A stretch of DNA of 60,216 nt from Anaerolineae bacterium (GCA_034429055.1 DAOUGK010000025.1:1-60216); one strand, 5' to 3'. Positions 1-60,216 are shown, numbered from the stretch's first letter. Notes: a model not told the origin generated them from the sequence alone. Translations and numbers: made by a program.

Positions 1-6
1 CTTTGC

Positions 7-1450
7 GCTGTAATTCCAACAGATCCTTAACAACCGAATAGCGTTAGTAGTCCAGCGGTACGAGCGCGGACCGGCGCTTCCAGTAAGCCAGGTCAGTCAC
101 GACCGCGGGCGCCTGTACTGCGGGCGGATAGGCGTCCTGCAGCGCGGGCGGCAGGGCCGGGATGCCGGCCAGCCCATGCTGGGCCGGGGTCGGACAGCCG
201 CAGTAGCGCGAGGCAGGCGTGTGATAGGCCAGGCTGCCATGCAGCCGGTAGTAGTTGTAGTACGGCACGAAGGCGGCCAGCGCCGCCTCGACTTCGGCCT
301 GCGTGGCACAGCGCTGGCGCAGGGCTTCCCGCTTCAGGATTTTGACCATAGCTTCGGCCTTGCCGTTGCCTTCGGGATAGTACACGGCGGTGCGGCAGTG
401 GCGGATGCCGTAGTCGTGCAGTTGGCGGCCAAAACGGGTGGGCACGTCCTCGTAGACACTGACAAAGGCCCGGCCGTTATCGGTGACCACCTGCTGGGGG
501 CGGCCAAAGCGCTGGAACGCCGTCTCGCTGACGCTCAGGGCCGTGGCGACGGTCATATCGGGTACCGTGTGGCAGGTCAGGCAGAAACGCGACTGGTCAT
601 CGATGAGCACGACGAAGGTGATCCGGGTGCCATCGCGCAGGGTGGTTTCGGCAAAGTCCATGTGCCACTGCTGGTTGGGCATCGCCATCTCATAGCGTTG
701 TCTGGGAATGCCATCGCACTTGGCCAGGCTGTGGTAAGTGCGGGTGGGCAAGTGATAGCGCCGGAAGATGCGGCCGATGCTGGTGTGACTGAGCTGCGCC
801 AGACCGCGCTGGGCCAACTCCGCCGCCAGGCGTTTCTCGTTCCAGCCCAGCAGGCGGCGCAAGGCGACGACCAGCAGTTCGGTCGCCACGGCGATCTGGC
901 GCGGGGCCGGCGCGGGGCCGGGCCGTTTGGGCAGCAAGGCGGCCACCCCACCCTGGCGATACAGGCGCCACCAGCGCCGCACGGTGGGGACGCTGACTTG
1001 AAACTTATGGGCACACCGGCTGGCCGCCGCCGCTTCACGCCCGTGCTGGCGCCAATGTTCGTAGTAGCGCACCGCCTTGACCCGCCGCCGGACGAGTTCA
1101 CCGAGCAACTTGGGCCAGCCCAACCGGCGCAGCTGCTGGCGCCGCGCCTGCCGTAACCGATCAGCTTCCCGTTTGGCCCACTCGGTCTGGCCCCGGCTGC
1201 TGGCGGCACGGCGCTGCGGCTGTTGGCGCAGCACGGCGGCCTGGGCGAACTCCTGGTCGAGCTGATTGGGCGAGAGGGTCTGACGCCCGCGATGGCGCCG
1301 TTTGGCGGTAGAATCAGTCATAGCAGCAGCCTTTCTGGTCTGGAATGTACTTCGCTAAGCACATTGTCGCTCAGATGGCTGCTGCTTTCCACCGCCAGCC
1401 CCACACCAGCTAACGCTATTCGGTTGTTAAGGATCTGTTGGAATTACAGC
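7..1450 (-). mobile_element. Insertion sequence, IS481-like (family tentative), 1444 bp
   Basis: 41-bp perfect terminal inverted repeats (7-47 gctgtaattccaacagatccttaacaaccgaatagcgttag; 1410-1450 is its reverse complement) bracket one DDE transposase ORF. ctttgc at 1-6 and cctttgc at 1451-1457 fit a target-site duplication of at least 7 bp that is cut by the window edge. TGT-type termini and a single ORF suggest IS481-like. Confidence 0.85.
44..1321 (-). CDS. DDE transposase (HTH + rve/integrase core), 425 aa
   Basis: The N-terminal HTH-like segment is VSVPTVRRWWRLYRQGG. The catalytic-core pattern is D (QQWHMDF), D (VVTDNGRAF), E (YPEGNGKAEA), typical of retroviral-integrase-type transposases. 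The stop codon lies inside the IR. Confidence 0.92.
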   Translation of the reverse strand: MTDSTAKRRHRGRQTLSPNQLDQEFAQAAVLRQQPQRRAASSRGQTEWAKREADRLRQARRQQLRRLGWPKLLGELVRRRVKAVRYYEHWRQHGREAAAASRCAHKFQVSVPTVRRWWRLYRQGGVAALLPKRPGPAPAPRQIAVATELLVVALRRLLGWNEKRLAAELAQRGLAQLSHTSIGRIFRRYHLPTRTYHSLAKCDGIPRQRYEMAMPNQQWHMDFAETTLRDGTRITFVVLIDDQSRFCLTCHTVPDMTVATALSVSETAFQRFGRPQQVVTDNGRAFVSVYEDVPTRFGRQLHDYGIRHCRTAVYYPEGNGKAEAMVKILKREALRQRCATQAEVEAALAAFVPYYNYYRLHGSLAYHTPASRYCGCPTPAQHGLAGIPALPPALQDAYPPAVQAPAVVTDLAYWKRRSALVPLDY

Positions 1451-1559
1451 CCTTTGCGCCTTTGCGTGAGTATGGGTTCGGACTTTTCAAACGCCCTCTA
1501 AGACTGAAGCCTTGGCTTTGCGCTCTTAGCGTCTTCGCGGTTCAATTCCTGCCTCTCAG

Positions 1560-1799
1560 TCAAGCGCGGGGCAGGTGCAGGGCCGAGAACGGCGGGTAGT
1601 TCACGCGTTTCTGCGCGGCCTCGACAGCCGCGACCGATGGCAGCCCCGACCCGATATGACCGAGGGCGGCGACGGAGAATGCCGTTGCCAGCCGCGCACA
1701 TTCGGCCAGCGGCAGGCCGCGCAGCTTGCCCGCGACGGTCCCCGCGATCACCGCATCGCCCGCGCCGACTGTGCTCTTGACCTCGATCGCGGGCGGCAC
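1560..1799 (-). pseudogene. 3'-terminal relic of a PfkB-family (1-phosphofructokinase-type) kinase gene
   Basis: 79 codons (PPAIEVKSTVGAGDAVIAGTVAGKLRGLPLAECARLATAFSVAALGHIGSGLP...) are about 80% identical to residues 249-311 of the intact kinase at 22996-23982. The N-terminal ~248 residues are absent and similarity starts abruptly at 1799. Confidence 0.8.
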
Positions 1800-1820
1800 A
1801 TTGGATACATCTATTTGAAG

Positions 1821-2096
1821 TCATTCAGCCACGACTGATGGTCTCCCCTTCGGAGTGGCGTCCGTTTTCTTCTTGCGCTGCCCCTTGACGATATAGGGCA
1901 GTAGCAGCAGGTACGCTCCGCTGATGGCCATGACCAGCATCAGGATGGATGGGATCTGCTCCAGCCTTTCCCAGGTAGCTGCGAGCTGCGGATCCCCCAA
2001 CAGCTTGATGACGACAGCGACCGGGATCGCGATTGCGGTCGGCACGGCGATCCAACGATGGAACTTGCGAAACCACTTGCTCAAGAACTTCGTCAC
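1821..2096 (-). CDS. Small membrane protein, hypothetical (91 aa)
   Basis: The GTG start lies about 8 nt after gaggt. There are two hydrophobic helices (IAVPTAIAIPVAVVIKLL; ILMLVMAISGAYLLLLPYIV) and a basic tail. No family was recognised. Confidence 0.6.
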   Translation of the reverse strand: MTKFLSKWFRKFHRWIAVPTAIAIPVAVVIKLLGDPQLAATWERLEQIPSILMLVMAISGAYLLLLPYIVKGQRKKKTDATPKGRPSVVAE

Positions 2097-2124
2097 GTGT
2101 GAATACCTCGCATCCTTAAGATTG

Positions 2125-2400: not shown

Positions 2401-2431
2401 CGTCACGCCTCCCGTGAACCATGCGCTCGAA

Positions 2432-2827: not shown

Positions 2828-2973
2828 TCTATGCTTCTCCTCTGGTGAACTTCAATAGGCGTCACTGTTTCGAGTATAAGCCCAGCCTGCCGGCGGCGGA
2901 ACGACTTAAGTCGGGAATGCAGCAACCGGATGTATAATCGCGATCAGGTGTACCGCTACGGATGTGAGGCAAC

Positions 2974-3796: not shown

Positions 3797-6700
3797 ATGA
3801 GGCATCTTGTGTCACCGACCTTCTATCGGAGCCGTCCGACCATTGGGGTCCTGGCCGGCTGGCAAATCTACTGGACGGCCAGGCCGTTGAGCTACCTGAA
3901 CCCCATCTTTCGCGGAATCCGCCAGGCCGCGGCTGACTTGGGCTGCAATCTCCTTTTAGGCTGCGGGTTAGGGCCGACCGCAACCTCCAGCGATCCTCTG
4001 CGCCCCGCGTGGCCCTTCCTTTCGCCAGAAACCGACTTTGTTCCGATTGGGCCGTGGAACACGGATGGCCTGATCGCGATCAATCCGCTGCATTCAGAAG
4101 CGCGTTCGCATGACCTGCAACAGGTGAGGGCGGCCGGTCACCCGGTGCAATTTATTGGCTCCGGAGAAGACGGCCCGACGATTGTTGCCGACAATGCCGG
4201 GGGCATCCAGATTGCGCTGGAGCACCTGAGCGAGCATGGCCACCGGCGCATCGCCTTCATCGCCGGCAGCCCGGCAGATATGTCCGGTGACACCGGCGCC
4301 CGGCTGACCGCCTATCGCACCGCGCTCGCTCAGCATACGCCGGCGGCCCAACCTGGGTTGGGGGCCCAACCTGGGTTGGGCTTTGACGAGCGCCTGGTGG
4401 CCTACGGCCGGCACACCTACGATGGCGGCGAAGCAGCCATGCGCCAGATCATCGACTCAGGTGCGGCGTTCACCGCGGTTCTGGCGAGCAACGATGAGTC
4501 GGCCTTCGGTGCACTGCAAGTACTCCGCAGCGCCGGTCTGGACGTTCCGCGTGATGTGGCGGTCATCGGCTTCGATGACCGCCCGGAATGTGCGGTGCAG
4601 GAACCGCCGTTAACCAGCGTCCACATTCCCCTGGTCAACATGGGTTATCGCGCGGTCGAGCTGCTCCTGCAGCAGATTAACGGCCGGCCTGCAGCGGTCG
4701 AACCCGTGAAGATTGCCACCCGTCTTGTGCCGCGTGAATCGTGCGGCTGTGGCTGGACGGCTCTTCGTGCCCAGCGCCTACCTTCTGGGTCGGCGGAATC
4801 TGCGGTCGAGACGAGTCAGTCGGCTGATCGACGCGCGCGCCTGGTGCAGGCAATGGTCGAGACCGTCCTGGCTGAGACCCAGGGCTCTTACGCGACAGCC
4901 ATGCGCCAACGCTGTCACGATCTTGTCCATGCCTTCATCCTGAGTGTCGAACAGCGCGAGGTGTCTGTCTTCCAACAGAATCTGGCTGATCTGCTCCGCG
5001 CCACGGCCGGGGAGGGGATTGACACACATATCTGGCAAGGGGTGCTCTCGCAGCTGGGCTGCGAGATGCCTGCCCTGTTGGCCGACTGGGACCAGCCTGC
5101 GACGCGGGATTTCGCGCGGGAATTGTTGGAGCAGGCGCGCGTGGCAATCAGCGCCGCCACACTGCGCCAGAGGCAGCAGTTTGTCGTGGACCAAAGCTGG
5201 ACGGACGGCCGCATCGGGCTGTTGACGGCGCGCCTCCTCACCGCGCTTGACGAAACCCAAGTCTATCAGATTTTGGCGCAGCACTTGCCCGAAATGGGCA
5301 TCCGAACTGCGGTCGTGGCCCTTTTTGAGGCTGAAGGCGAGGACCCCGTGGCATGGAGCTCCCTGCGCTCCGTCACAGCCGCCGGACAGCCGACGTGCCG
5401 TTTCCCCACCCGAGACTATCCACCTGCCGGCCTCTGCGCGGCCGAGCAGCCCTTCAGTCAGGCATTGTTGCCGCTGGTGAACCCGCACGGCCAGCTGGGA
5501 TACGTGGCGTTCGATACCGGTCATCTGGAGCTCTATGGTGCGATCGCACAACAGATTGCCGGCGCCCTCAACACCGCACAGTTGTATCGTGAGGCCACTG
5601 AGGGCCGGCGCCTGGCCGAAGAAGCGGACCGGATGAAGAGCCGTTTCCTTTCGACCGTGAGCCATGAGTTGCGCACGCCGCTGAACCTGATTGTCGGTCT
5701 GGGCGAGATCCTCCTGCGCGACAGTGAGCGGGGCGCTCTGCCGCTGCCCCCGGCCGCGCTGAACGATCTGGCGCGCCTGAACGCCAACGCTCAGCATCTG
5801 GGCCGGCTGATTGGTGACGTGCTGGACCTTGCCAGCAGCGATGCCGGACAGTTGCGGCTGACCAATCAGCTCGTGGATCTGGGACAGACTCTACAGACGG
5901 CGGTGGAGACCGGTCGGAGGCTTGCGGCGGATAAGGGGCTCGGATGGCGTGCGACCCTTCCCGAATCGGGGCCGTGGGTCTGGGGCGATCGCACCCGGCT
6001 ATCACAGGTGGCGCTGAACTTCATCAGCAACGCTATCAAATTTACGACGTACGGAGAAGTCTCCCTGGCGGTGGAGCTTGGCGCCGGGTCTGTCACCGTC
6101 AGCGTGCGCGACACAGGGCTGGGCATCCCGCTAGAGGAGCAGGCCGCGATCTTCGCGGACTTCCGCCGGTCGGAGCGGAGCATCACCCGCGGCTACAGCG
6201 GCCTGGGCCTGGGGCTGGCGATCTGCCGGCGTCTGATCGAGCTGCACGGCGGCACGATCGGCGTGGAGTCTACCGGGCACGAGGGCGCTGGCTCGACCTT
6301 CTACTTCACCTTGCCGGTCGTCGAACCGCCGGCCGTCCAGGTACCGGTTGCCGCGTCGGCGGCGGGGAGCGAAGGGGGCGTCCTGGTGCTTACCCCGTCG
6401 CCGGACACCAGCGAGCGCCTGCGCGTGCACTTACAGCAGCACGGCTTTGAGGTGCAGATGGCCCTGCCGGATCAGCCCTCGAACTGGCAACCTCTGCTCC
6501 TGGCCGCACCCCCCACCGCGATTGTGCTCGATGTGACCCAGGCATCGGATCAGGCCTGGCATGTGCTGAAGATGCTTAAGGCCGACTCCAGAACACAGGA
6601 GATTCCTGTGCTCTTCTACGCGCTCTCGCAGGACAGCGGCGCAGTCCTGGAACTGGACTATCTCACCAAGCCGATCGAACTGGCCGAGCTGACGCGCGCG

Positions 6701-7456
6701 CTCGATCAGCAGTGGCTGCTGCCGGATGCGGTGTCCTCCCCGACGTCGCAGCGCGTGTTTCTGGTGGTCGACGATGACCCGGACACCCTGGAGATGCACG
6801 CGCGCATCGTGCGCCGACATTCGCCTGCCAATCGTGTGCTGCAAGCGCGCAACGGGTTGGCGGCGCTGGACATCCTGCAGCGCGAACACGTCGATCTGGT
6901 GCTGCTGGATCTGATGATGCCGGAAATGGACGGCTTTGCCGTGCTGGCAGCAATGCGGGAACGCGAGGCCACGCGCACCATCCCGGTCATCGTCGTCACC
7001 GGTCAGACGCTCACCGAGCCGGAGATGAGCCGGTTGAATATCGGTGTAACGCGGGTGTTGAGCAAGGGCGTATTCAACCTCGAAGAAACGCTGGCCCACC
7101 TGGACGGCGCGCTGGCGCGCAAGCGGGTCTTGAGCAGCGAAGCGCAACGCCTGGTGCGCCAGGCGATGGCCTATATTCAGGCGCACTACGCCGAGCCGCT
7201 CTCGCGCCAGGCAATCGCCGCGCACGTCGGCCTGAGCGATGACTATCTCACCAGTTGCTTTCATAAGGAACTCGGCCTGACGCCGGTGGCTTACCTCAAC
7301 CGTTATCGTGTGGAGCAGGCCCGCCAACTGCTGGCAAATACGCACAAGAGCATCACCGAGATTGCGCTGGACGTGGGCTTCTCCAGCAGCAGCTATTTCA
7401 GTCGCATCTTCCGCCGTGAGACGGGTGTGTCGCCGGAGGCATATCGGCGCTCGTAA
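3797..7456 (+). CDS. Hybrid sensor-regulator: LacI-type ligand-binding domain + GAF-like + histidine kinase + degenerate receiver + receiver + AraC-type HTH (1219 aa)
   Basis: - aa ~13-318: LacI/periplasmic-binding-fold pattern (RPTIGVLAG..., RIAFIAGSP, VLASNDESAFGALQVLRSAGLDVPRDVAVIGFDD, TSVHIPL) with no HTH.
- aa ~470-600: GAF-like end (LLPLVNPHGQLGYVAFD...AQQIAGALNTAQLYREA).
- H-box SHELRTPL (His623).
- HATPase_c motifs (NFISNAIKFT; DTGLGI; GLGLGLAICRRLIELHGG).
- Receiver-like aa ~861-968, lacking the acidic pair.
- Canonical receiver aa ~987-1095 (VVDDD, LLDLMMP Asp1038, VTG, SKG).
- AraC HTH aa ~1118-1217 (ITEIALDVGFSSSSYFSRIFRRETGVSP).
- No hydrophobic TM segment was seen. Confidence 0.9.
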   Translation: MRHLVSPTFYRSRPTIGVLAGWQIYWTARPLSYLNPIFRGIRQAAADLGCNLLLGCGLGPTATSSDPLRPAWPFLSPETDFVPIGPWNTDGLIAINPLHSEARSHDLQQVRAAGHPVQFIGSGEDGPTIVADNAGGIQIALEHLSEHGHRRIAFIAGSPADMSGDTGARLTAYRTALAQHTPAAQPGLGAQPGLGFDERLVAYGRHTYDGGEAAMRQIIDSGAAFTAVLASNDESAFGALQVLRSAGLDVPRDVAVIGFDDRPECAVQEPPLTSVHIPLVNMGYRAVELLLQQINGRPAAVEPVKIATRLVPRESCGCGWTALRAQRLPSGSAESAVETSQSADRRARLVQAMVETVLAETQGSYATAMRQRCHDLVHAFILSVEQREVSVFQQNLADLLRATAGEGIDTHIWQGVLSQLGCEMPALLADWDQPATRDFARELLEQARVAISAATLRQRQQFVVDQSWTDGRIGLLTARLLTALDETQVYQILAQHLPEMGIRTAVVALFEAEGEDPVAWSSLRSVTAAGQPTCRFPTRDYPPAGLCAAEQPFSQALLPLVNPHGQLGYVAFDTGHLELYGAIAQQIAGALNTAQLYREATEGRRLAEEADRMKSRFLSTVSHELRTPLNLIVGLGEILLRDSERGALPLPPAALNDLARLNANAQHLGRLIGDVLDLASSDAGQLRLTNQLVDLGQTLQTAVETGRRLAADKGLGWRATLPESGPWVWGDRTRLSQVALNFISNAIKFTTYGEVSLAVELGAGSVTVSVRDTGLGIPLEEQAAIFADFRRSERSITRGYSGLGLGLAICRRLIELHGGTIGVESTGHEGAGSTFYFTLPVVEPPAVQVPVAASAAGSEGGVLVLTPSPDTSERLRVHLQQHGFEVQMALPDQPSNWQPLLLAAPPTAIVLDVTQASDQAWHVLKMLKADSRTQEIPVLFYALSQDSGAVLELDYLTKPIELAELTRALDQQWLLPDAVSSPTSQRVFLVVDDDPDTLEMHARIVRRHSPANRVLQARNGLAALDILQREHVDLVLLDLMMPEMDGFAVLAAMREREATRTIPVIVVTGQTLTEPEMSRLNIGVTRVLSKGVFNLEETLAHLDGALARKRVLSSEAQRLVRQAMAYIQAHYAEPLSRQAIAAHVGLSDDYLTSCFHKELGLTPVAYLNRYRVEQARQLLANTHKSITEIALDVGFSSSSYFSRIFRRETGVSPEAYRRS

Positions 7457-7642
7457 CCCTCGCTTTGCGCGTGCCGGGCACTGTGCACCCGCCTGGCCCG
7501 CGGCCTCTTTTCCCCCCCAATTCTTGCATCTTAGCGGAATCCTGCATGTTCCGTACGCTTTTGGGCAAGCCCCCCTTCAATTAACCCGATAGAATCATGT
7601 TCAGTTGTGGAAGCGATCCCAGCCCAATGTGCGGGGGACAGC

Positions 7643-7867
7643 ATGACACTCACCCTTCAGCAAATCGCTCAATTGGCGGGCGTCTCACGCTCGACCGCTT
7701 CGCGCGTCATCAACGGACATCCCCACGTGCGGCCCGAAGTGCGCGAACGGGTCTGGCAGGTTATCGGCGAACACGGCTACCAGCCCAATCCCATCGCGCG
7801 GCTCCTGGCCGCCAGCCGCACCAGTGAATCGGCCCTGGATCGGCCGGACCAGGATACCAGCGCATGA
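7643..7867 (+). CDS. Stand-alone LacI-family HTH domain protein (74 aa), possibly a truncated LacI
   Basis: [62 protein letters not shown] matches the LacI/GalR N-terminal HTH plus hinge. Homology ends at the hinge and no ligand-binding domain follows. The ATG at 7643 follows ggggga. Confidence 0.7.
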
Positions 7868-7880
7868 GCCGCACCTTCTT

Positions 7881-7941
7881 TTTTCGCCAGCGATCCTTTC
7901 GCCAGCAATCCTTTCGCCAGCGATTCCTTCGCCAGTGACTG
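7881..7941. repeat. Four tandem 15-16-bp direct repeats (TTTCGCCAGCRATCC-like) in the regulator/transporter intergenic region
   Basis: The units are tttcgccagcgatcc (7881-7895), tttcgccagcaatcc (7896-7910), tttcgccagcgattcc (7911-7926) and ttcgccagtgactgg (7927-7941). The array lies 119 nt upstream of the binding-protein start codon. Confidence 0.85.
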
Positions 7942-8059
7942 GAAGCGCTTTCAGGATTTCCGAAGGAGGTGGCGCAGCCCATTGATAATCCCAAATCGTG
8001 ATCAGCTAGATGTTGTTCCAACCAATCCTTTCATAATCCGGTATAAGGAGAAGACTCTC

Positions 8060-9409
8060 ATGTCCAGGAAGATCGTGACCCTCGTCAGCATGTTGATCGT
8101 GCTGGCAACCGTGCTGTCCGCTTGCGGCGGCTCGGCCACCCCGGCGCCGTCCACGGCAGCAGGCGGAGCGGCCCAGGCCCCCGCTGCGGATGCCAAAGTG
8201 ACCCTGAAGGTGCTCGTCCACCAGAATCCGCCCATGGTGGAGTTCATGAACACCTTCAATGAGAAGTTCCAGGCCAAATATCCCAACATCACCGTGGATA
8301 TGTCGGTCGTGAACGCCAACGACCTGAGCACCGTCACCCAGACCCGGCTGACCGCCAATGACGTGGATGTCGTAGATATCTTCGGCTTCGCGAATGCGGC
8401 CCAGCCGTACATGAAGAACGTCACCCAGCCCAATTGGCAGACCCTGATCGAGGCCGGCCTGTTGATGGACCTCACGGATCAGCCGTTCGTCAAGAACTAC
8501 GACGAGGCGACGATCAAGGACGCCGGTACCTACAACGGCAAGGTCTATTCGATCAACCTGGGCCGCGTTTCCTACAGCGGCATCTACTACAACAAGGACA
8601 TGTTCACTGCGAACAATGTTAAAGTCCCCACCACCTGGGGCGAGCTGGTGGCTGCCTGCGAAACCTTCAAAGCAGCCAACATCCCGTGCATGACCGCGGG
8701 CGGCAAGGACGGCTGGCCCATCTTCGTGGGCGCGTACGGCCTGACGGGCGCGCTCTATCCTGACCAGGCCGCCCTGGTCGAGGGGCTGTGGACCGGCAGC
8801 ATCAAGTGGAACGATGCCAAGGCCCTGGACATGTGGCAGCGGATGAAGGTCTACACCCAGGACATGATGGAATCGGGCGCCAGCGGCATCGCGGGTGACG
8901 CGGCGCCTGGGCGCTTTGCCTCCGGTGCGGTCGCCATGTTCCCCGGCGGCACCTGGTACGCCTCGGCCATCGACGCGGCCGAACCGGCCTTCGAGTGGGG
9001 CTACATCCCCTTCCCCGGCAGCGACAACGCCGACGACAACAAGTACCTGTTCGGCAAGTACGACCAGGGCTGGGCCGTAGCCGCCAAGACCGCCAACACG
9101 GACGCGGCCATGAAGTACCTGACCGAGTTCTCGGCCCCGGCCAACTACCAGGCGTTTGCCAATGCGGTCGGCTTCATCCCCACCCAGCCGGGCGCCAAGT
9201 TGGAAACCAAGATCGGCCAGGAAGTTGCACCGTATCTCGCCAACTTCCGCGTGGGCTTCGAGCAGTACTGGATCGCGCCGAAGGGCGCCGGCCAGTACGC
9301 CAACCCCTGGGCTTCGTACTTCAAGCCGTTCGGCGAATACGACGACCCGCAAGAACTGGCGAACAAGGTGCAGGCTGACCTGCAATCCGGGCTGGACGCG
9401 AACCAGTAG
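8060..9409 (+). CDS. ABC transporter extracellular solute-binding lipoprotein (CUT1/family-1 sugar-binding type, 449 aa)
   Basis: The ATG at 8060 is preceded by aaggag. The lipoprotein signal is MSRKIVTLVSMLIVLATVLSACGG. Size and composition are typical of sugar SBPs, and two permease genes follow. The upstream ORF extension from 7982 was rejected. Confidence 0.9.
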   Translation: MSRKIVTLVSMLIVLATVLSACGGSATPAPSTAAGGAAQAPAADAKVTLKVLVHQNPPMVEFMNTFNEKFQAKYPNITVDMSVVNANDLSTVTQTRLTANDVDVVDIFGFANAAQPYMKNVTQPNWQTLIEAGLLMDLTDQPFVKNYDEATIKDAGTYNGKVYSINLGRVSYSGIYYNKDMFTANNVKVPTTWGELVAACETFKAANIPCMTAGGKDGWPIFVGAYGLTGALYPDQAALVEGLWTGSIKWNDAKALDMWQRMKVYTQDMMESGASGIAGDAAPGRFASGAVAMFPGGTWYASAIDAAEPAFEWGYIPFPGSDNADDNKYLFGKYDQGWAVAAKTANTDAAMKYLTEFSAPANYQAFANAVGFIPTQPGAKLETKIGQEVAPYLANFRVGFEQYWIAPKGAGQYANPWASYFKPFGEYDDPQELANKVQADLQSGLDANQ

Positions 9410-9493
9410 GCCGTCAGCCGGACCGGCCTTCCCGCTGTGGGCTTCTCGTCCGATCTTCGAGAAGCCCACAGCCATATCGCATGGAGGCACGCC

Positions 9494-10420
9494 ATGAACT
9501 ATCACTTCGGTCACGGCAGGTCCAGGTGGCTGCCCTATCTGTTGCTCCTGCCAGGGATCTTCTTCTACCTGTTGATCAGCCTGGGCCCGTCGCTCGCAAC
9601 CGCCGTCTATTCGTTCACCGATGCCACCGGCATCAAGGGTGCGCCCATCAACTGGGTGGGGTTGGCGAACTATCGCGAATTCCTCTTCATGGGCCAGGCC
9701 TCGCTCGACAACTACAGCGCGCTCTGGCGTACGCTGATCTTCTGCTTCTTCGTGACGACCATCCAGTTCACCCTGGGGCTGGTCATTGCCCTGCTCGTGA
9801 ATCAGAAGCTGCGGGGCGTCAACTTCTTCCGCACCGTCTACTTCATGCCTGTCATCCTGGGCGCGGTAATCCAGGGCCTGATCTGGTCCCTCTTTCTCTA
9901 CCCCCTGGGCGGCCCGATGGCCCAGTTGTTGGGCCTGTTCGGGCTGAAGTCTGAGTTTCTCGGCGGGCAGGCCAGCCAGGCGTTCGCCTGGGTGATCGTC
10001 GTGCAGATCTGGGCCAACATGGGCACGACGATGATGATCTTCATCTCCGGCCTCCAGACCATTCCGGACGAACTTTACGAGGCGGCGCGCATCGATGGCG
10101 CCGGCTCGTGGCACGTCTTCCGCAACGTGGTGTGGCCCCTCCTGACGCCGGTCGTGAACACCAACCTGCTCCTGAACATCATCGGCTCGCTTCAGGCCTG
10201 GCAACTGTTCCTGGTGCTCCTCGGTTACCGCAACGGGACACAGGTTCTCGGCTATCTGATCTTCGCCCAAGGCTTCGGTCAGACCTCCGGCAGCGTCACC
10301 AGTGCGTTCCGGCAAGGCTATGCTGCAGCCGCCTCGATCGTGCTGTTCATCCTCGTGCTGGTGATCGGCATGATCGTCCAGACCGTGCTGCGGCGCAGAG
10401 AAGAAAGGGTCATGGGATGA
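9494..10420 (+). CDS. ABC sugar transporter permease (MalF/UgpA-like, 308 aa)
   Basis: Multiple TM segments are present. The EAA-type loop is IPDELYEAARIDGAGSWHVFRNVVWPLL. The ATG at 9494 follows ggagg. Confidence 0.92.
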   Translation: MNYHFGHGRSRWLPYLLLLPGIFFYLLISLGPSLATAVYSFTDATGIKGAPINWVGLANYREFLFMGQASLDNYSALWRTLIFCFFVTTIQFTLGLVIALLVNQKLRGVNFFRTVYFMPVILGAVIQGLIWSLFLYPLGGPMAQLLGLFGLKSEFLGGQASQAFAWVIVVQIWANMGTTMMIFISGLQTIPDELYEAARIDGAGSWHVFRNVVWPLLTPVVNTNLLLNIIGSLQAWQLFLVLLGYRNGTQVLGYLIFAQGFGQTSGSVTSAFRQGYAAAASIVLFILVLVIGMIVQTVLRRREERVMG

Positions 10421-11280
10421 GCACAACTGTTGCGACTGCACCAACTGCCCGGAAGGTGACCGATACCAGGACGATCAATTGGGGACGCATCCTCTCCTAT
10501 GTGCTCCTGGTGCTCTTCGCGATCATCTATCTGGGCCCGCTGCTCATGCTGGTCAGCACGTCTCTGAAGACGTTGCCCGACTTCATGAAGAACGCGACCT
10601 CCCTGCCCACGTCGCTGAACTTCAAGAATTTCACCGAGGCGTGGACGAGGGCCAATTTCCCCCGGTACCTGACCAACACCGTGCTCTACACGGTCTCCGC
10701 GACGGTCATCTACCTTGTCACGGCGGTGTTTGTCGCGTTCCCCATCTCGCGCGGCTACGTCAAGGGCGCCAAGGTCCTGCTGACCCTGTTCGTGATCGCC
10801 CTGTTCCTGCCCGTGGCGTTGATTCCCCAGTTCCAGCTGATGTTGTCGTTGGGGCTGTACAACAACCCGTTCGGCTACGTCCTGTTGTTCCTGGTGAACC
10901 CCATCGGGATCATCATCCTGGTCAACTACATCAAGACCCTTCCGAAAGAGATGGATGAGGCGGCCGCGATCGACGGCTGCGGCTACTTCCGTTTCGTGCT
11001 TACCGTGGTCTTCCCGCTGATCCAGCCGGCCATCGCCACGGTGGCCGTGCTGCACGCCATCGGCATCTGGAACGAGCTGATCCTGCCGACCATCTACCTG
11101 ACCAACCAGAACTACTATCCCATCACGCGCGGCATGATCGTGTTCCAGGGCGTCTACGGCAGCAACTGGCCGACGCTGGCAGCCGCGGTCCTGATCATGA
11201 CGCTGCCGATGGTCATCATCTTCCTGGTGCTGCAGCGCTACATCGTGTCCGGCCTGACCCAAGGCGCGGTCAAAGGCTAG
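10417..11280 (+). CDS. ABC sugar transporter permease (MalG/UgpE-like, 287 aa)
   Basis: The start overlaps the upstream stop (ATGA at 10417-10420). The EAA loop is LPKEMDEAAAIDGCGYFRFVLTVVFPLI. Six hydrophobic segments are present. Confidence 0.92.
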   Translation: MSTTVATAPTARKVTDTRTINWGRILSYVLLVLFAIIYLGPLLMLVSTSLKTLPDFMKNATSLPTSLNFKNFTEAWTRANFPRYLTNTVLYTVSATVIYLVTAVFVAFPISRGYVKGAKVLLTLFVIALFLPVALIPQFQLMLSLGLYNNPFGYVLLFLVNPIGIIILVNYIKTLPKEMDEAAAIDGCGYFRFVLTVVFPLIQPAIATVAVLHAIGIWNELILPTIYLTNQNYYPITRGMIVFQGVYGSNWPTLAAAVLIMTLPMVIIFLVLQRYIVSGLTQGAVKG

Positions 11281-11517
11281 TAGTGCGCCACGCTGATTTT
11301 GAGGAGCGTAGCGTAGCCCCTTGTGGGCGTAGCTGCGTGTGCGTCAGGGCGGGCACAAGGCCCTAGTAGTGCGCCACGCTGATTTTGAGGAACGTAGCGT
11401 AGCCCCTTGTGGGCGTAGCCGCGTGGGCGTCCGGACGGGCACAAGGCCCTAGACTACACATCATGATCACCGTGGCGAGGTACTAGACGGCACATCATGT
11501 TCACCGTGACGAGGTAC
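11278..11517. repeat. Compound intergenic tandem repeat: 2 x 86 bp followed by 2 x 34 bp
   Basis: The 86-bp units at 11278-11363 and 11364-11449 both begin tagtagtgcgccacgctgattttgagga and contain tagccccttgtgggcgta...cgggcacaaggccc. The 34-bp units are at 11450-11483 and 11484-11517 (tagacNNcacatcatgNtcaccgtgNcgaggtac). Confidence 0.9.
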
Positions 11518-11534
11518 TGGAGTCTGTTTTCACA

Positions 11535-11569
11535 GTTGTTTCGGGCGGCTCCCGGCCGCCCGAAACAAC
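11535..11569 (+). other. 15-bp perfect stem-loop 12 nt upstream of the GH16 start codon (function unknown)
   Basis: gttgtttcgggcggc (11535-11549) pairs with gccgcccgaaacaac (11555-11569) around a 5-nt loop. No U-tract follows on either strand. Confidence 0.6.
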
Positions 11570-11581
11570 CGAAGGGACAAA

Positions 11582-12391
11582 ATGAAGAAGACACGTGCCG
11601 TAACCCTTCTCCTGACGCTGATACTGCTGCTGACAGCCTGCGCGCCCGCTGCCACGCCCGTCCCTGTGCCGGAGGGTTGGCAGTTGGTCTGGCACGACGA
11701 ATTCGACGGCAAGGCGGTTGACAAGGCCAACTGGACCTACGACCTCGGCGGCTCGGGGTGGGGCAATGGGGAGGCCCAATTCTACACCGACCGGCCGGAA
11801 AACGCGCACGTCGAGGATGGTCTGCTCATCATCGAGGCCAGGCAGGAAAAGTACGAGGGCTCCTACTACACCTCAGCGCGGCTGAAGACGCAAGGGCTGC
11901 AGGAATTCCAGTACGGCCGGATCGAGGCGCGCATCAAGGTGCCCGCCGGCGCAGGGCTGTGGCCCGCGTTCTGGATGTTAGGCGCAGGCTTCGACGGCAC
12001 GAACTGGCCCGATTGCGGCGAAATTGATATCATGGAGTACGTTGGCCGTGAGCCGGACCTGGTCATGGGCACTGCCCACGGGCCGGGCTATTCGGGCGCG
12101 CTCGGATTGAGCCGGTGGAACCGGCAGACCTACAACCTCGCCGACGATTTCCACACCTTCGCCATCGAATGGCAGGCCGGCCAGATCAAATGGTTCTATG
12201 ACGGCGCCGAGTATTTCACACTGACCAGCGCCGATGTAGGCGACCGCCAGTGGGTCTTTGACCAGCCGTTCTTCATCATCCTGAACCTGGCGATAGGAGG
12301 CACGCTGGGCGGCACGATCGGCCTCGACACGGCTTTCCCCACGCAGTTGCAGGTGGACTACGTACGGGTCTTTCAGGTGGCGGACTCGTAA
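11582..12391 (+). CDS. GH16 beta-1,3(-1,4)-glucanase / laminarinase-type lipoprotein (269 aa)
   Basis: The lipobox is LLLTACAP. GH16 laminarinase-type motifs are present: GLWPAFWMLG, the catalytic GEIDIMEY, and FHTFAIEW. Confidence 0.9.
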   Translation: MKKTRAVTLLLTLILLLTACAPAATPVPVPEGWQLVWHDEFDGKAVDKANWTYDLGGSGWGNGEAQFYTDRPENAHVEDGLLIIEARQEKYEGSYYTSARLKTQGLQEFQYGRIEARIKVPAGAGLWPAFWMLGAGFDGTNWPDCGEIDIMEYVGREPDLVMGTAHGPGYSGALGLSRWNRQTYNLADDFHTFAIEWQAGQIKWFYDGAEYFTLTSADVGDRQWVFDQPFFIILNLAIGGTLGGTIGLDTAFPTQLQVDYVRVFQVADS

Positions 12392-12450
12392 CGCCAAGCT
12401 CTGCGGGTTCCATGAACCCGCAGAGCCCATATCGTCAGAGGAGTTCAGTC

Positions 12451-15400
12451 ATGAAGCTAACGACCACTTTTGTTAATTTGGCCGCGATTCTGAGTCTGCT
12501 GCTCGGCGGCGCGCTCGTGCTCCCCGGCCCGCAGGCTCAGGCGCGGGTGGCGGCCGCGAGCGCCGCGCTGCCCCTCGTGGACGACTTCGAGGCCGGGCTG
12601 CCGGCCGGGCAGGATGGTTCGGTGCCGATCGGGTTCAACACCTTCGCGGACCCCAACAGCACGGCTGCAATCTCGACCACCAATGCGGATCCGGCGCCGT
12701 CAGTGCCGGGGCGGGGCGCGGGGAACCATGTTCTGAAGCTGGACCTCAATGTCGTGGCATGGGCCGGCGTCACCCATGCCTTCGAGAATGCCGGGGCCAC
12801 GGCCTGGGTGACCCAGGATTGGAGCGCGTACGCAGGCATCTCCTTCTATCTCTACGGCACGGGGACGGGCACTGACCTGTTCATGGATGTGCTCGACAAC
12901 CGTAACCCCGGCTCGACCAGGGACGACGCCGAGCGCTGGACCCTGGCCTTCAAGGACGATTTCACCGGCTGGAAGCTGATCGAGCTCCCGTTCGCCAGCA
13001 TGACCCGCAAGGAGATCGGCAACGGCGCGCCGAACGACGGCTTCGGGCTGACCGAGGTGCACGGCTGGGGCTTCGGCACGCTGGGCACGGGCGGCGCAAA
13101 GGCCTACTACCTGGACGATGTATCGGTCTACGGTGTTGCACCAGTCAAGCCGCTGACGGTCGGCTTTAATACGCTCAACTATCCGGTCACCGAGGGCGAT
13201 GCTGCAACGATCACGGCCAAGCTCAGCAAGCCTTCCGCCGATGTGGTGACGGTGGATTATGCGACGACCTCCGGCCCCGCAGTTGCGAATCGCGACTATG
13301 TGCCGACCTCCGGTACGTTGACCTTCCCGCCGGGCGTCACCCAGCAGTCGTTCGCGGTGCAGACGATTGACGACGCCAAGTTCCAGGGCGAACGCGGCGT
13401 GCTGGTCGAGCTGTCCAACCCGACCGGCGGCCTCGCGATGGGCATGCCGCCGTTGGCGCGGGTGAACATCCTGGACAATGAGGCGTACTACCCGCCGCTG
13501 CTGGACGACTTCGAGACCTATCCGTACCTCTGGTCCGCGACCCCGCGCGCGGCCCTGTCCAACCCGGAGATTGCCGCGGGCGACATGCTGGCGCTGCCGG
13601 GCCAGGGCGCGTACGAGCACGTGCTCCAGGTCGGTCCACAGCGCCTCAGCTATCTGCCGCTCATGGCGCACAAGGGTCTCGCAGCACCCCCGCCTGTCCA
13701 GCAGCCCGCCGCGCCGCCCACCCAACGCTTTGGCCGCACCTTCCCTGTCGGCCAGGACTGGAGCGCCGCGTCGGGGTTGAGCTTCTGGTACTACGGCCGC
13801 AACAGCGGCAAAGCGGTCCAGGTTGCGCTGACCAACGACCTGGCGGCTCCGACCAATCCCGCGAACTGGCAGCTTGTCTGGCGCGATGAGTTCAATACGG
13901 CTGCCGGCGCCCCGCCCAACCCGCGCGTCTGGGGCAACGAGGTCGGCGACGGCACCGTCAACGGCATCCCCGGCTGGGGCAACGATGAGCTGGAGTATTA
14001 CACCCCAGGCGGCACGAACGCATCCACCGACGGCCAGGGCCACCTGGTAATCACCACCGCGGCAGCTGACGGCTCGCTGCAGTGCTACTATGGACCCTGC
14101 AAGTACACCTCGGCGCGGCTGCTGACCAAGAACCGGTTCGAGGTCGCCTACGGCCGGGTCGAGGCGCGCGTCAAAGTGCCCGTCGGCGCCGGGCTCTGGC
14201 CGGCGTTCTGGATGCTCGGCACGGACATCGACCGGGTCGGCTGGCCGCTGACCGGCGAAATCGACATCATGGAGCACGTCGGGCGCCTGCCCAACGAGAT
14301 CTTCGGCACCCTGCACGGCCCCGGCTATTCGGGCGGCAACAGCTACGGCAAGGTCGTCGATCTGGGCAAACCGGTCGCCGATGAATTCCATACCTTCGCG
14401 GTGGAATGGCAGCCGAATAAGATCACCTGGTTCCTGGACGGCGTCGCTTACTTCACGGCGACCCCGGCCGATCCGTTCCTTGCGGGCAAGCAGTGGGTCT
14501 ACAACCACCCGTTCTACATGCTGCTGAACGTGGCGGTCGGCGGCAACTTCGGCGGGGCAGTCAGCCCCGACACGGTCTTCCCGCAGCAGACCCTGGTGGA
14601 CTACGTGCGCCTCTACCAGGCTGCGCCGCAGCCCGTGTCGTTTGCGACGTCGTTCGTCGACAACTTCAGCGGCTGGCAGCAGATCAGCCTCCCCTTCACC
14701 GCCTTCAAGGACGCGGTGGGAACCACGCTGGACCCGTCGGCCGTGCGGTCGATCAGCTTCGGCGTACCGGCTCCCCTGCGCACTCCGGTGCTGCTCGACC
14801 AGGTGCGCCTGACGTACGACGATGCCACGCCGCCAACGGTGGACATCACCAGCAGCGCGGCCGGCCAGACGGCGGCGGGCCCGGTCACGTTCACCTTCAC
14901 GTTCAGCGAAGACATCGGCACGAGCTTCACCGCCGATGACATCGCGGTCACGGGCGGCGCAGCGGGCACCTTCACGCGCGTCAGCGGCACGCTGGCGACG
15001 TTGGTTGTGACGCCGCCTGCGAATGCGACCGGCACGATCACCGTCAGCGTGGCGGCGGGCAAGTTCTACGACCTTGCCTACAATGCCAACACGGCCGCGG
15101 CCTCTCTCGATCAAGTTTACGACACGAAGAGTGTTGTGCTGAACGGGCTGCCGGTGACGTTTGACGACCCGGCGGTGACGTACACGCTGACGGGCTTCGG
15201 CGGGGCTGAGGCGGCGAGCGTGGTGACCGACCCAGCGGGCGGCACGAACAAGGTGGCGCAGGTCACCAAGTCGGCGACGGCGGAGCTGTGGGCGGGCGTG
15301 ACCGTCTCGACCGAGCCGGGCAACTCGCTCGCACCGATTCCGTTCACCGCGACGGCCAAGACCATCACGGTGCGGGTGTGGTCGCCCACGGCGGGTGTGC

Positions 15401-16680: not shown

Positions 16681-16697
16681 TTCACATAAGTGCCTAT

Positions 16698-16768
16698 CCG
16701 AAAAAGGGGTAGCATAGCCCCTTGTGGGCGTACTAACGGGCACAAGGCCCTAGACTACGACTTTTCGG
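16698..16768. repeat. REP/MITE-like intergenic element, related to the core of the 86-bp repeats at 11278-11449
   Basis: It shares tagccccttgtgggcgta...cgggcacaaggccctagacta with the copies at 11278-11455. It is flanked by the 7-bp inverted repeat ccgaaaa (16698-16704) / ttttcgg (16762-16768). Confidence 0.8.
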
Positions 16769-16875
16769 TAGACACTAAGGGCTCGTAAAAGAATAAGTTC
16801 CGCCGCTGGCACGGTCGGAGACCGGCCAGAGCAGGAAGTAATACTTTTACAGACCCTAAGCCTCCTGAGCGGAAC

Positions 16876-16911
16876 TTTGCACCGCCTGCATCAGCTCGCA
16901 GGCGGTGCAAA
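16876..16911 (+). other. 14-bp perfect stem-loop / palindrome 17 nt upstream of the phosphorylase-like gene start (function unknown)
   Basis: tttgcaccgcctgc (16876-16889) pairs with gcaggcggtgcaaa (16898-16911) around an 8-nt loop. No U-tract follows. Confidence 0.6.
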
Positions 16912-16928
16912 TTGAAAGCGAACACACC

Positions 16929-20222: not shown

Positions 20223-20228
20223 TAACCG

Positions 20229-29885: not shown

Positions 29886-30331
29886 GAACACTCCAGAAGA
29901 TAGGGTTGTGGTATGGATTGCGAATGGTGCGTGGGGTTAACAACTGAACAGCGGCCTGGAAGGCAGCCGCAGTACAGGCTCAGAAGGGAGCGGGAACGTA
30001 CGCCGGGTTTCATCCGGTGTCCTCTGGTTCGGCTCTGGGTGAGCCGCGGGCTATCTGGCCCGCGGCAGACAGGTGCAAGGGAGAGAAAAGACGGGTGCCG
30101 CGCGTCGTACGACGCGCGGCACCCGTCTTTTCTCTCCCTTGCACCTGTCTGCCGCGGGCCAGATAGCCCGCGGCTCACCCAGAGCCGAACCAGAGGACAC
30201 CGGATGAAACCCGGCGTACGTTCCCGCTCCCTTCTGAGCCTGTACTGCGGCTGCCTTCCAGGCCGCTGTTCAGTTGTTAACCCCACGCACCATTCGCAAT
30301 CCATACCACAACCCTATCTTCTGGAGTGTTC

Positions 30332-57785: not shown

Positions 57786-57816
57786 TTCGAGCGCATGGTT
57801 CACGGGAGGCGTGACG

Positions 57817-58092: not shown

Positions 58093-58120
58093 CAATCTTA
58101 AGGATGCGAGGTATTCACAC

Positions 58121-58396: not shown

Positions 58397-58417
58397 CTTC
58401 AAATAGATGTATCCAAT

Positions 58418-58657
58418 GTGCCGCCCGCGATCGAGGTCAAGAGCACAGTCGGCGCGGGCGATGCGGTGATCGCGGGGACCGTCGCGGGCAAGCTGCGCGG
58501 CCTGCCGCTGGCCGAATGTGCGCGGCTGGCAACGGCATTCTCCGTCGCCGCCCTCGGTCATATCGGGTCGGGGCTGCCATCGGTCGCGGCTGTCGAGGCC
58601 GCGCAGAAACGCGTGAACTACCCGCCGTTCTCGGCCCTGCACCTGCCCCGCGCTTGA
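58418..58657 (+). pseudogene. 3' relic of a PfkB-family kinase gene (mirror copy)
   Basis: Exact twin of 1560-1799. Confidence 0.8.
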
Positions 58658-58766
58658 CTGAGAGGCAGGAATTGAACCGCGAAGACGCTAAGAGCGCAAA
58701 GCCAAGGCTTCAGTCTTAGAGGGCGTTTGAAAAGTCCGAACCCATACTCACGCAAAGGCGCAAAGG

Positions 58767-60210
58767 GCTGTAATTCCAACAGATCCTTAACAACCGAATA
58801 GCGTTAGCTGGTGTGGGGCTGGCGGTGGAAAGCAGCAGCCATCTGAGCGACAATGTGCTTAGCGAAGTACATTCCAGACCAGAAAGGCTGCTGCTATGAC
58901 TGATTCTACCGCCAAACGGCGCCATCGCGGGCGTCAGACCCTCTCGCCCAATCAGCTCGACCAGGAGTTCGCCCAGGCCGCCGTGCTGCGCCAACAGCCG
59001 CAGCGCCGTGCCGCCAGCAGCCGGGGCCAGACCGAGTGGGCCAAACGGGAAGCTGATCGGTTACGGCAGGCGCGGCGCCAGCAGCTGCGCCGGTTGGGCT
59101 GGCCCAAGTTGCTCGGTGAACTCGTCCGGCGGCGGGTCAAGGCGGTGCGCTACTACGAACATTGGCGCCAGCACGGGCGTGAAGCGGCGGCGGCCAGCCG
59201 GTGTGCCCATAAGTTTCAAGTCAGCGTCCCCACCGTGCGGCGCTGGTGGCGCCTGTATCGCCAGGGTGGGGTGGCCGCCTTGCTGCCCAAACGGCCCGGC
59301 CCCGCGCCGGCCCCGCGCCAGATCGCCGTGGCGACCGAACTGCTGGTCGTCGCCTTGCGCCGCCTGCTGGGCTGGAACGAGAAACGCCTGGCGGCGGAGT
59401 TGGCCCAGCGCGGTCTGGCGCAGCTCAGTCACACCAGCATCGGCCGCATCTTCCGGCGCTATCACTTGCCCACCCGCACTTACCACAGCCTGGCCAAGTG
59501 CGATGGCATTCCCAGACAACGCTATGAGATGGCGATGCCCAACCAGCAGTGGCACATGGACTTTGCCGAAACCACCCTGCGCGATGGCACCCGGATCACC
59601 TTCGTCGTGCTCATCGATGACCAGTCGCGTTTCTGCCTGACCTGCCACACGGTACCCGATATGACCGTCGCCACGGCCCTGAGCGTCAGCGAGACGGCGT
59701 TCCAGCGCTTTGGCCGCCCCCAGCAGGTGGTCACCGATAACGGCCGGGCCTTTGTCAGTGTCTACGAGGACGTGCCCACCCGTTTTGGCCGCCAACTGCA
59801 CGACTACGGCATCCGCCACTGCCGCACCGCCGTGTACTATCCCGAAGGCAACGGCAAGGCCGAAGCTATGGTCAAAATCCTGAAGCGGGAAGCCCTGCGC
59901 CAGCGCTGTGCCACGCAGGCCGAAGTCGAGGCGGCGCTGGCCGCCTTCGTGCCGTACTACAACTACTACCGGCTGCATGGCAGCCTGGCCTATCACACGC
60001 CTGCCTCGCGCTACTGCGGCTGTCCGACCCCGGCCCAGCATGGGCTGGCCGGCATCCCGGCCCTGCCGCCCGCGCTGCAGGACGCCTATCCGCCCGCAGT
60101 ACAGGCGCCCGCGGTCGTGACTGACCTGGCTTACTGGAAGCGCCGGTCCGCGCTCGTACCGCTGGACTACTAACGCTATTCGGTTGTTAAGGATCTGTTG
60201 GAATTACAGC
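58767..60210 (+). mobile_element. IS481-like insertion sequence (mirror copy)
   Basis: Exact twin of 7-1450. Confidence 0.85.
58896..60173 (+). CDS. DDE transposase (mirror copy)
   Basis: Exact twin of 44-1321. Confidence 0.92.
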   Translation: MTDSTAKRRHRGRQTLSPNQLDQEFAQAAVLRQQPQRRAASSRGQTEWAKREADRLRQARRQQLRRLGWPKLLGELVRRRVKAVRYYEHWRQHGREAAAASRCAHKFQVSVPTVRRWWRLYRQGGVAALLPKRPGPAPAPRQIAVATELLVVALRRLLGWNEKRLAAELAQRGLAQLSHTSIGRIFRRYHLPTRTYHSLAKCDGIPRQRYEMAMPNQQWHMDFAETTLRDGTRITFVVLIDDQSRFCLTCHTVPDMTVATALSVSETAFQRFGRPQQVVTDNGRAFVSVYEDVPTRFGRQLHDYGIRHCRTAVYYPEGNGKAEAMVKILKREALRQRCATQAEVEAALAAFVPYYNYYRLHGSLAYHTPASRYCGCPTPAQHGLAGIPALPPALQDAYPPAVQAPAVVTDLAYWKRRSALVPLDY

Positions 60211-60216
60211 GCAAAG

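Follow-up and report, generated by a model that had tools for sequence, protein, structure and literature searches.

A perfect 60.2-kb palindromic contig from an uncultured Anaerolineae bacterium is very probably an artefactual fold-back at a terminator hairpin

Introduction

Contigs that are palindromic over their whole length have been described as assembly errors: SPAdes assemblies of M. bovis isolates yielded 81 exact whole-contig palindromes (PMC9455707), and whole-contig palindromes were likewise reported as errors in cyanobacterial single-cell assemblies (bioRxiv 10.1101/2023.06.06.543983). At the level of single reads, fold-back or inverted chimeras originate in library preparation (Breakinator, PMC12870357; ligation-prep nanopore, PMC13141652; PDSM, PMC10908179). 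Such reads join the strands of one locus head to head, often through an adapter-free junction nucleated by genomic inverted repeats or palindromes.

Large inverted structures also exist in cells. In E. coli sbcCD recA mutants, palindromes can seed inverted duplications centred on themselves, the pre-existing seed being a 246-bp engineered interrupted palindrome (PMC3315005). Natural large inverted repeats occur in the chromosome of L. delbrueckii ssp. bulgaricus, where arms of 23–38 kb surround a unique centre of 1–8.8 kb that is retained in all documented natural cases; these repeats lie at the terminus including dif, are conserved among strains and show doubled read depth (PMC5345009). Across 1,368 complete circular genomes, inverted repeats longer than 8 kb with a spacer below 10 kb were found in only 5, and spacer-less ones in 0 (PMC5345009).

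The contig described here resembles the M. bovis and cyanobacterial contigs in being a full palindrome with an exact mirror, reverse-complement gene twins and ordinary chromosomal content. Unlike in those reports, where the content of the axis is not described, the axis maps here to the centre of a terminator loop; in addition, the outer ends map to the edge of an insertion sequence (IS), and the source is a metagenome-assembled genome (MAG).

Results

The window, that is, the whole 60,216-nt stretch analysed, is an entire deposited NCBI contig. Compared with its own reverse complement it shows complete identity, with 0 mismatches over 60,216 nt, and the symmetry axis lies between T30108 and A30109 with a spacer of 0 nt. 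An earlier sequence-only reading had claimed a perfect 60.2-kb spacer-less palindrome with its axis at 30108/30109 and all features doubled as mirror twins, and the self-comparison bears this out on each count. Specifically, the unique arm (1–30108, plus strand) is a 30.1-kb (30,108-bp) chromosomal segment of an uncultured Anaerolineae bacterium, while the mirror arm (30109–60216, minus strand) is the exact reverse complement of 1–30108 and carries no independent information, so that the mirror twin of any feature at position p (1–30108) sits at 60217−p. Base composition follows the same symmetry (A = T = 10,625; C = G = 19,483). The odds of such a palindrome by chance are 4^-30108. Reading the centre as a restriction site (GTAC or CGTACG) proved uninformative, since every perfect palindrome has a palindromic centre.

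With a probability of roughly 90%, the contig is an artefactual fold-back, in which a 30,108-bp stretch of chromosome (U) is followed by its own reverse complement, turned at a terminator hairpin. The turn-round would have taken place in the assembler or the library rather than in the cell, a placement that we infer, like any choice between those two, from sequence alone.

The axis coincides with a hairpin at positions 30093–30124 (unstranded), formed by GGGTGCCGCGCGTCGT and ACGACGCGCGGCACCC on the two sides of the axis, and flanked on each side by a U-rich tract, GTCTTTTCTCTCCC, at 30125–30138 and mirrored at 30079–30092. This hairpin matches the intrinsic-terminator stem-loop of a neighbour gene of about 1,050 aa that is missing from the contig. 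In relatives, folds and alignments place a 14–17-bp stem-loop 12 nt past the stop codon of that gene, followed by a U-rich tract, and the T/A axis of the window aligns with the centre of the GCCU loop (GC/CU) in the related contig L009. Native status can be assigned only to the hairpin half proximal to the gene for an SH3-domain protein, the other half being its mirror. Elsewhere the arm contains only six hairpins with a perfect stem of at least 10 bp, so a random breakpoint would fall at a hairpin centre (±1 nt) with a probability below 0.1%; moreover, the loops of these hairpins are asymmetric in 6/6 cases, and the axis is therefore the sole site able to form a spacer-less palindrome. The position of the axis at the hairpin centre thus argues for a hairpin-guided fold-back, either at the level of the assembly graph or through snap-back chimeric reads.

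The turn-round point thus coincides with a short native palindrome, the conserved terminator hairpin, although a perfect native stem in this strain is an assumption. In the relatives the hairpin is imperfect at the DNA level, with G·T positions, and two of the related contigs (L087 and L096) lack any perfect run as long as 9 bp. If the hairpin of the source strain were equally imperfect, a turn-round purely in the k-mer graph would fail and chimeric fold-back reads would be needed; a perfectly symmetric centre would in that case also require a self-complementary loop.

Related contigs reveal the native arrangement at this position. All 14 independent related contigs (L009, L010, L087–L097 and L100; 84–93% DNA identity) run past the axis position into a tandem paralogous gene of 1,050–1,054 aa, and none of the 14 is mirrored. 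These contigs come from different samples (NCBI MAGs, JGI metagenomes and Logan assemblies) and represent relatives rather than the same strain, the closest at about 92% DNA identity. In every one the order is the 1,050–1,054-aa gene, 250 bp, the SH3 gene and a glycoside hydrolase (GH) gene. When L010 and L100 are aligned to the window, both alignments end precisely at 30108, and the L100 junction is native, with its hairpin centre at the axis position. The candidate P0282/L100 was rejected as a same-strain native junction, being an L010-like relative at 84% identity.

A same-strain contig across the axis was not found. Searched for exact DNA matches to the axis region, the viral collection gave none, and neither did the JGI metagenomes, whether the query was the entire 32-bp palindrome or a 37-mer taken only from its native side. 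P0287, a distinct ortholog of the neighbour gene missing here, is present on a separate 3.5-kb NCBI contig, which is suggestive, and only suggestive, of a likely copy of the displaced gene. The relatives were examined for another palindrome at the other end that is predicted for it, and none was found.

These observations are consistent with the following route to an artefactual fold-back. In the real genome, the spacer of about 250 bp before the SH3 gene would hold the terminator hairpin of the tandem paralogous gene of about 1,050 aa, a G+C-rich palindrome of up to about 32–34 bp that is alike on both strands. The graph junction at this hairpin would be its own reverse complement, with two exits leading either to the true neighbour or to the complement of the unitig of entry, and fold-back chimeric reads formed at hairpins during library preparation may add weight to the wrong exit. 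Having taken that exit, the assembler would then lengthen both mirrored ends up to a multi-copy IS481-like element. The arms would be identical to the base because a single consensus is used twice, and 0 mismatches fit better with one reused consensus than with two separately sequenced arms or a raw read. An artefact of this kind should have an exactly mirrored second half without a spacer, a non-mirrored continuation in independent assemblies and termini at break points; the window shows the first, the relatives the second (14/14, at 84–93% DNA identity), and the edge of the multi-copy IS the third.

The outer ends are defined by this IS481-like element, which occupies 9–1450 (minus strand; mirror twin 58767–60208) and is bounded by 39-bp terminal inverted repeats (TGTAATTCC...). 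Its transposase gene (44–1321, minus strand) encodes rve and HTH domains and scores 201.8 bits against the IS481 model NF033577, under the cut-off of 224. Window bases 1–8 (CTTTGCGC) lie just beyond the inverted repeat, so that the contig ends 8 nt outside the element. At least 8 other short contigs carry copies of the IS at 99.7–100% identity; compared with each other, these copies have at least 2 different outer flanks and 3 different inner flanks. The contig probably ends at the IS edge because a multi-copy element in several genomic contexts leaves the assembler without a unique continuation. The outer ends are thus a typical assembly break point, a graph branch at a multi-copy IS, rather than the end of a DNA molecule.

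Scans against Pfam, NCBIfam and PHROG identify the unique arm as ordinary chromosome of the Anaerolineae (Chloroflexota), consisting of a beta-1,3-glucan utilisation locus and the IS481-like element. It carries the IS, a Crp-family regulator, a hybrid sensor kinase, an ABC sugar transporter, two GH16 genes, a GH149-like and a GH94-like gene, a PfkB kinase, a carboxylesterase, the GH gene and the SH3-domain protein. The last of these (28488–29885, minus strand; 465 aa; Pfam SH3_3; mirror twin 30332–31729, plus strand) is the final native gene ahead of the axis; its product has an exact match, P0121, in the protein collection, and its orthologs are 92–98% identical. The gene order of the arm is common to Anaerolineae MAG contigs, including one of 834 kb, at 84–93% DNA identity. 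Plasmid and phage collections contain no match to the arm, no protelomerase, replication, partition or phage gene occurs among the scanned ORFs (Pfam 20, PHROG 8, NCBIfam 6), and GC skew along the 30-kb arm has no informative trend.

This gene content and its surroundings bear directly on the idea that the contig is a linear replicon of 30 kb whose telomeres are covalently closed hairpins and which was sequenced, like a single-stranded circle, round both of its ends. N15, phiKO2 and Borrelia are hairpin-telomere linear replicons, and the likeness of the window to them is one of formal topology only. Such a replicon should encode a protelomerase or telomere resolvase together with replicon functions and possess genuine termini, whereas here the scanned ORFs include none of these functions and the supposed telomeres are a terminator hairpin between two genes at one end and a multi-copy IS edge at the other, both within a chromosomal gene order. 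In the interior of the 834-kb chromosomal contig, that order continues beyond the supposed telomere. Together with the lack of similarity to plasmid or phage records, the gene order common to relatives leaves this explanation, as far as sequence comparison can tell, effectively refuted. The sequence-only reading had proposed a single-stranded circle with two hairpin ends and pointed to a second symmetry axis formed on joining the ends; the circle finds no support, and the outer symmetry is a tautology, true of any sequence equal to its own reverse complement.

The identity of the arms also bears on whether a single pass took in the two strands of one 30-kb duplex and then became the contig, through a missed SMRTbell adapter, a nanopore template-complement fold-back or one MDA chimera. 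The palindromic topology agrees with such a read-through, 30 kb is a plausible insert size for long reads, and fold-back reads do occur in ONT and PacBio data (PMC12870357; PMC13141652). However, zero mismatches between the arms exclude a raw read, and adapter 12-mers are absent from the whole window, as is any spacer at the axis. Moreover, a read-through would place its axis at a random fragment end, whereas the axis found here is the exact centre of a native hairpin, and its outer ends would be shear points rather than an assembly stop at a multi-copy IS. With neither an adapter remnant nor read-level errors nor an arbitrary axis, this origin is very improbable. The window thus differs from the chimeric reads described (PMC12870357; PMC13141652; PMC10908179), which are single reads with errors, in being a consensus, polished or derived from the graph, with 0 differences between the arms, and chimeric fold-back reads supplied at most the wrong graph link. 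The sequence-only reading was accordingly sound in favouring a data-integrity artefact over a real structure, but the missed-adapter and template-complement mechanisms that it listed fit less well than a hairpin-guided fold-back.

Discussion

A cellular origin would require a real, very recent in-vivo fold-back inverted duplication nucleated at the terminator hairpin. By this route, the hairpin would form, or a break occur near it, and the chromosome would then be copied back on itself through snap-back priming or through a switch of strands at a fork; the arms would reach at least the IS copies, where the assembly breaks. Both the axis at a native hairpin and the ending of the arms at IS copies would fit this sequence of events, and a real repeat with identical arms would yield the same contig from an assembler. 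However, the native junction is kept in 14/14 related contigs, the divergence between the arms is zero, and the displaced neighbour gene may have a copy on a contig of its own. SbcCD cleavage and loss of long palindromes, which the sequence-only reading invoked, is reasonable background, and to our knowledge long perfect palindromes are not tolerated by wild-type bacteria. We regard such a duplication as very improbable.

Comparison with the described cellular structures points the same way. The E. coli sbcCD recA system (PMC3315005) resembles the window in that a large inverted duplication is centred on a pre-existing palindrome, which holds here as well; but that system combined its 246-bp engineered seed with a double mutant, whereas the seed here is a terminator stem-loop of only about 32 bp in a wild organism. 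Moreover, the E. coli duplication is a cellular structure, whereas the window is known from its sequence record alone. The L. bulgaricus repeats (PMC5345009) resemble it in scale and in their chromosomal location, but the window lacks the unique 1–8.8-kb centre, and its repeat, rather than being conserved among related strains, is absent from all 14 related contigs. A genuine, terminator-hairpin-seeded palindrome of at least 2 × 30 kb without a spacer, in this uncultured Anaerolineae member of a wastewater-type community, is very improbable. If true, it would give bacterial chromosomes their first natural giant palindrome without a spacer, an unprecedented structure, and it would indicate unusual palindrome tolerance in this lineage, for example through weak SbcCD activity.

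The structure is almost certainly a data-quality flag and not new biology; the arm being an ordinary glucan-utilisation locus, its biological importance is nil and its importance lies in data hygiene. Contigs of this kind inflate duplication and contamination estimates of MAGs, introduce false paralogues into pangenomes, and may be misread as inverted terminal repeats, as 'divergent twin genes' or as paired IS elements. A simple diagnostic combines self-complementarity of the whole contig, a short native hairpin at the axis and a repeat at the ends.

As an artefactual fold-back, the deposited contig has twice its true length, its genes are counted double, its true neighbour gene is displaced, and two fake ORFs arise at the junction. 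The latter, of 140 aa each in the ORF listing, cross the axis at 29882–30304 (minus strand) and 29913–30335 (plus strand), together spanning 29882–30335, and belong to no family in Pfam or PHROG. Both are spurious, created by the mirror junction, and the region in which they lie is an intergenic spacer in every relative.

Exact palindromy of the contig

The window matches its own reverse complement at 60,216 of 60,216 positions and has no spacer at its axis, which lies between T30108 and A30109; with 0 differences over 60,216 nt, the palindrome described by the sequence-only reading is confirmed. Only 30,108 nt, the arm (1–30108), are unique sequence, with a G+C content of 64.7%, and exact-sequence look-up of the encoded proteins shows that the window is a whole deposited NCBI contig. 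The simplest account of the symmetry is a fold-back contig, in which the arm is written forwards and then as its reverse complement (probability about 0.9). From comparison with relatives, the structure of the axis and ends, and prior knowledge, we infer that the palindrome is an artefact and not a real biological feature; its significance is low beyond the warning that a deposited contig has twice its true length. Crossing the axis are two mirror-image ORFs of 140 aa (29882–30304, minus strand; 29913–30335, plus strand) without family matches. Their region is an intergenic spacer in all relatives, and both are spurious genes made by the junction, which may be present as annotations in the deposited record.

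Whole-contig palindromes of this kind have been published. SPAdes assemblies of M. bovis contained 81 exact examples, considered assembly errors (PMC9455707), and others occur in single-cell assemblies (bioRxiv 10.1101/2023.06.06.543983). As an artefact, library preparation also generates fold-back or inverted chimeric reads, in ONT, PacBio and Illumina data alike; inverted repeats and palindromes serve as their nucleation sites (PMC12870357; PMC13141652; PMC10908179). These cases support assignment of the contig to the fold-back class.

Relatives across the axis

An ortholog of the axis-proximal SH3-domain protein gene (28488–29885, minus strand) is present on 14 contigs: L009 and L010 from species-representative genomes, L087–L097 from Logan assemblies of six sequencing runs, two JGI metagenomes and three NCBI assemblies, and L100 from a further JGI metagenome. 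All 14 share the gene order of a 1,050–1,054-aa gene (the neighbour gene, missing from the window), a spacer of ~250 bp, the SH3 gene and a GH gene, and 0/14 are mirrored. Homology between the window and these relatives covers the SH3 gene and the spacer and ends at the axis, and the alignments of L010 and L100 to the window stop precisely at 30108. Past this point comes the neighbour gene's stop codon in the relatives; in the window, the preceding sequence returns in mirror image. Exact-pattern scans of JGI metagenomes found no same-strain contig spanning the axis.

The SH3 gene and the neighbour gene (L009 6595–9747; L096 6587–9751) are tandem paralogues, with 69% DNA identity over ~920 bp. 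Members of their family are found very widely in MAGs of Anaerolineae and Caldilineales, at least 593 loci being confirmed by tblastn among the 600 pattern matches listed in one scan.

A terminator hairpin at the axis

Every relative has a G+C-rich stem-loop of 14–17 bp that starts 12 nt past the TAA of the neighbour gene, with a U-rich tract after it, the arrangement of an intrinsic terminator (L009 9757–9794; L010 ~9767–9797; equivalents in L087 and L096; L100 486–522). Predicted folds reach −43.9 and −36.8 kcal/mol, with z = −4.0 and −3.7. Stem sequences vary among the relatives while pairing, including G.U pairs, is retained, which fits a role as a functional RNA hairpin. In the window, the homologous hairpin arm ACGACGCGCGGCACCC occurs together with the same U-rich tract GTCTTTTCTCTCCC, and the T|A axis aligns exactly with the loop centre of the L009 hairpin (GC|CU) and also with the centre of the L100 hairpin. 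Only six other hairpins in the arm have a perfect stem of at least 10 bp, so a random breakpoint would fall within 1 nt of such a hairpin centre with a chance below 0.1%. These observations indicate that the turn-round was guided by the terminator hairpin. All six have asymmetric loops, and the axis hairpin is the sole hairpin of the arm able to be a spacer-less palindrome. Owing to their G.U pairs the relatives' hairpins are imperfect as DNA palindromes, so the native hairpin in the strain of the window may likewise fall short of perfect symmetry.

A real inverted duplication arising in vivo could also place an axis at such a site, since palindromes can seed inverted duplications in E. coli sbcCD recA mutants (PMC3315005), and the axis here likewise sits at a native hairpin; the seed, however, would be just ~32 bp. 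Natural inverted repeats of 38–76 kb are known in L. delbrueckii ssp. bulgaricus, but they always flank a unique centre of 1–8.8 kb, unlike the spacer-less window, and among 1,368 complete genomes five had inverted repeats >8 kb with spacers <10 kb and none had a spacer-less one (PMC5345009). Moreover, the native junction is kept in all relatives. P0287, a full-length and distinct ortholog of the displaced neighbour gene, lies on a separate NCBI contig of 3,502 bp. It shares ~97% identity with every known relative and could be the window's true neighbour gene, orphaned within the same assembly, although this is suggestive only. An in-vivo duplication is accordingly very improbable.

An IS481-like element at the outer ends

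Each outer end of the window is occupied by an IS481-like element (9–1450, mirrored at 58767–60208; transposase 44–1321, minus strand), which scores 201.8 bits against NF033577, under the cut-off of 224. It is bounded by 39-bp terminal inverted repeats (TGTAATTCC...), the outer of which ends at window base 9. At least eight other metagenomes or assemblies have copies with 99.7–100% identity on short contigs (L001–L008); compared with one another, these copies show at least two distinct outer and three distinct inner flanks, so the element is multi-copy and probably active. Given these several flanks, the contig ends lie at the edge of a multi-copy repeat, at which an assembler has no unique continuation, and not at a physical DNA end. 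No sign of a hairpin was seen at the outer ends of the window. The proposal that the molecule is a single-stranded circle with two hairpin ends therefore loses its footing, as the second axis formed on joining the ends holds for any self-reverse-complementary sequence and carries no information.

In two datasets a copy of the element adjoins the sequence of window 16779–16857 (L001 460–538; L003 30–108), an intergenic site between the 1,422-aa GH16 gene and the GH149-like gene that is uninterrupted in the window, suggesting an insertion polymorphism within the population. Every copy has short CTTTGCG(N)CTTTGCG / CGCAAAG repeats immediately beyond its inverted repeats (window 1452–1466; flanks of L001, L003, L005 and L006). 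The uninterrupted site (window ~16857) lacks this motif, which therefore seems to move with the element as a sub-terminal repeat and not to be target sequence.

Proposed origin of the fold-back

In the proposed fold-back, a unitig U would span the arm from the IS to the hairpin. Because the hairpin is alike on both strands, U would have two graph exits, the true neighbour and the reverse complement of U; the assembler would leave via the latter and halt at the IS on each mirrored end. Use of a single consensus twice would explain why the arms show no differences. Judged from the relatives' flanks, the native palindrome can be at most ~32–34 bp, and a purely k-mer-based turn-round would thus need k ≤33, for example in the early rounds of a multi-k assembler. 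Alternatively, a few snap-back or fold-back chimeric reads, formed at the hairpin during library preparation, would give the link. Either route would fit the evidence; chimeric reads may well have been needed, because the relatives' hairpins do not form perfect palindromes in DNA.

The artefact proposed by the sequence-only reading holds in outline, but its mechanism gives way to hairpin-guided fold-back at a native terminator with ends at an IS. Single-molecule read-through, by a missed SMRTbell adapter or an ONT template-complement, is quite improbable: the arms are free of errors, a screen of the window for adapter remnants found none, a spacer is absent, the axis sits at a native hairpin instead of a random end, and the termini lie at a repeat edge.

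Gene content of the arm

Arm genes were defined by a GC3-based ORF filter and scanned against Pfam, NCBIfam and PHROGs. The arm is an ordinary chromosomal segment. It encodes a PfkB fragment, a BON-domain protein, a Crp-family regulator, a 1,219-aa hybrid sensor kinase/response regulator with periplasmic-binding and AraC domains, an ABC sugar transporter, two GH16 enzymes (the 1,422-aa one with CBM11, Calx-beta and Ig-like domains), a 1,105-aa GH149-like protein (a weak match), a GH94-like protein, an intact PfkB kinase (22996–23982), a carboxylesterase, a glycoside hydrolase and the SH3-domain protein. The sensor kinase, transporter, both GH16 enzymes and the GH149-like and GH94-like proteins form, at 3797–22994, a coherent locus for the utilisation of beta-1,3-glucan (laminarin-type). 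Anaerolineae (Chloroflexota) MAGs are the nearest genomes; the top match, within a contig of 834 kb, has 96% protein identity for the SH3 gene and a DNA identity of ~92%. The Pfam, NCBIfam and PHROG scans found no protelomerase, replication, partition or phage structural genes among the ORFs scanned, and megablast searches of 72,556 plasmids and 50,697 phage records gave no match. A linear replicon with hairpin telomeres, which the data contradict on every testable point, has a practically negligible probability.

The PfkB fragment (1560–1799, minus strand; 79 aa, C-terminal part) adjoins the IS and matches the intact PfkB kinase gene at its 3′ end, with ~82% DNA identity, which identifies the fragment as a relic of a gene that was duplicated or truncated. 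The junction between IS and fragment recurs in L002 (ERZ2624663), one of the contigs with an IS copy, and is therefore genuine.
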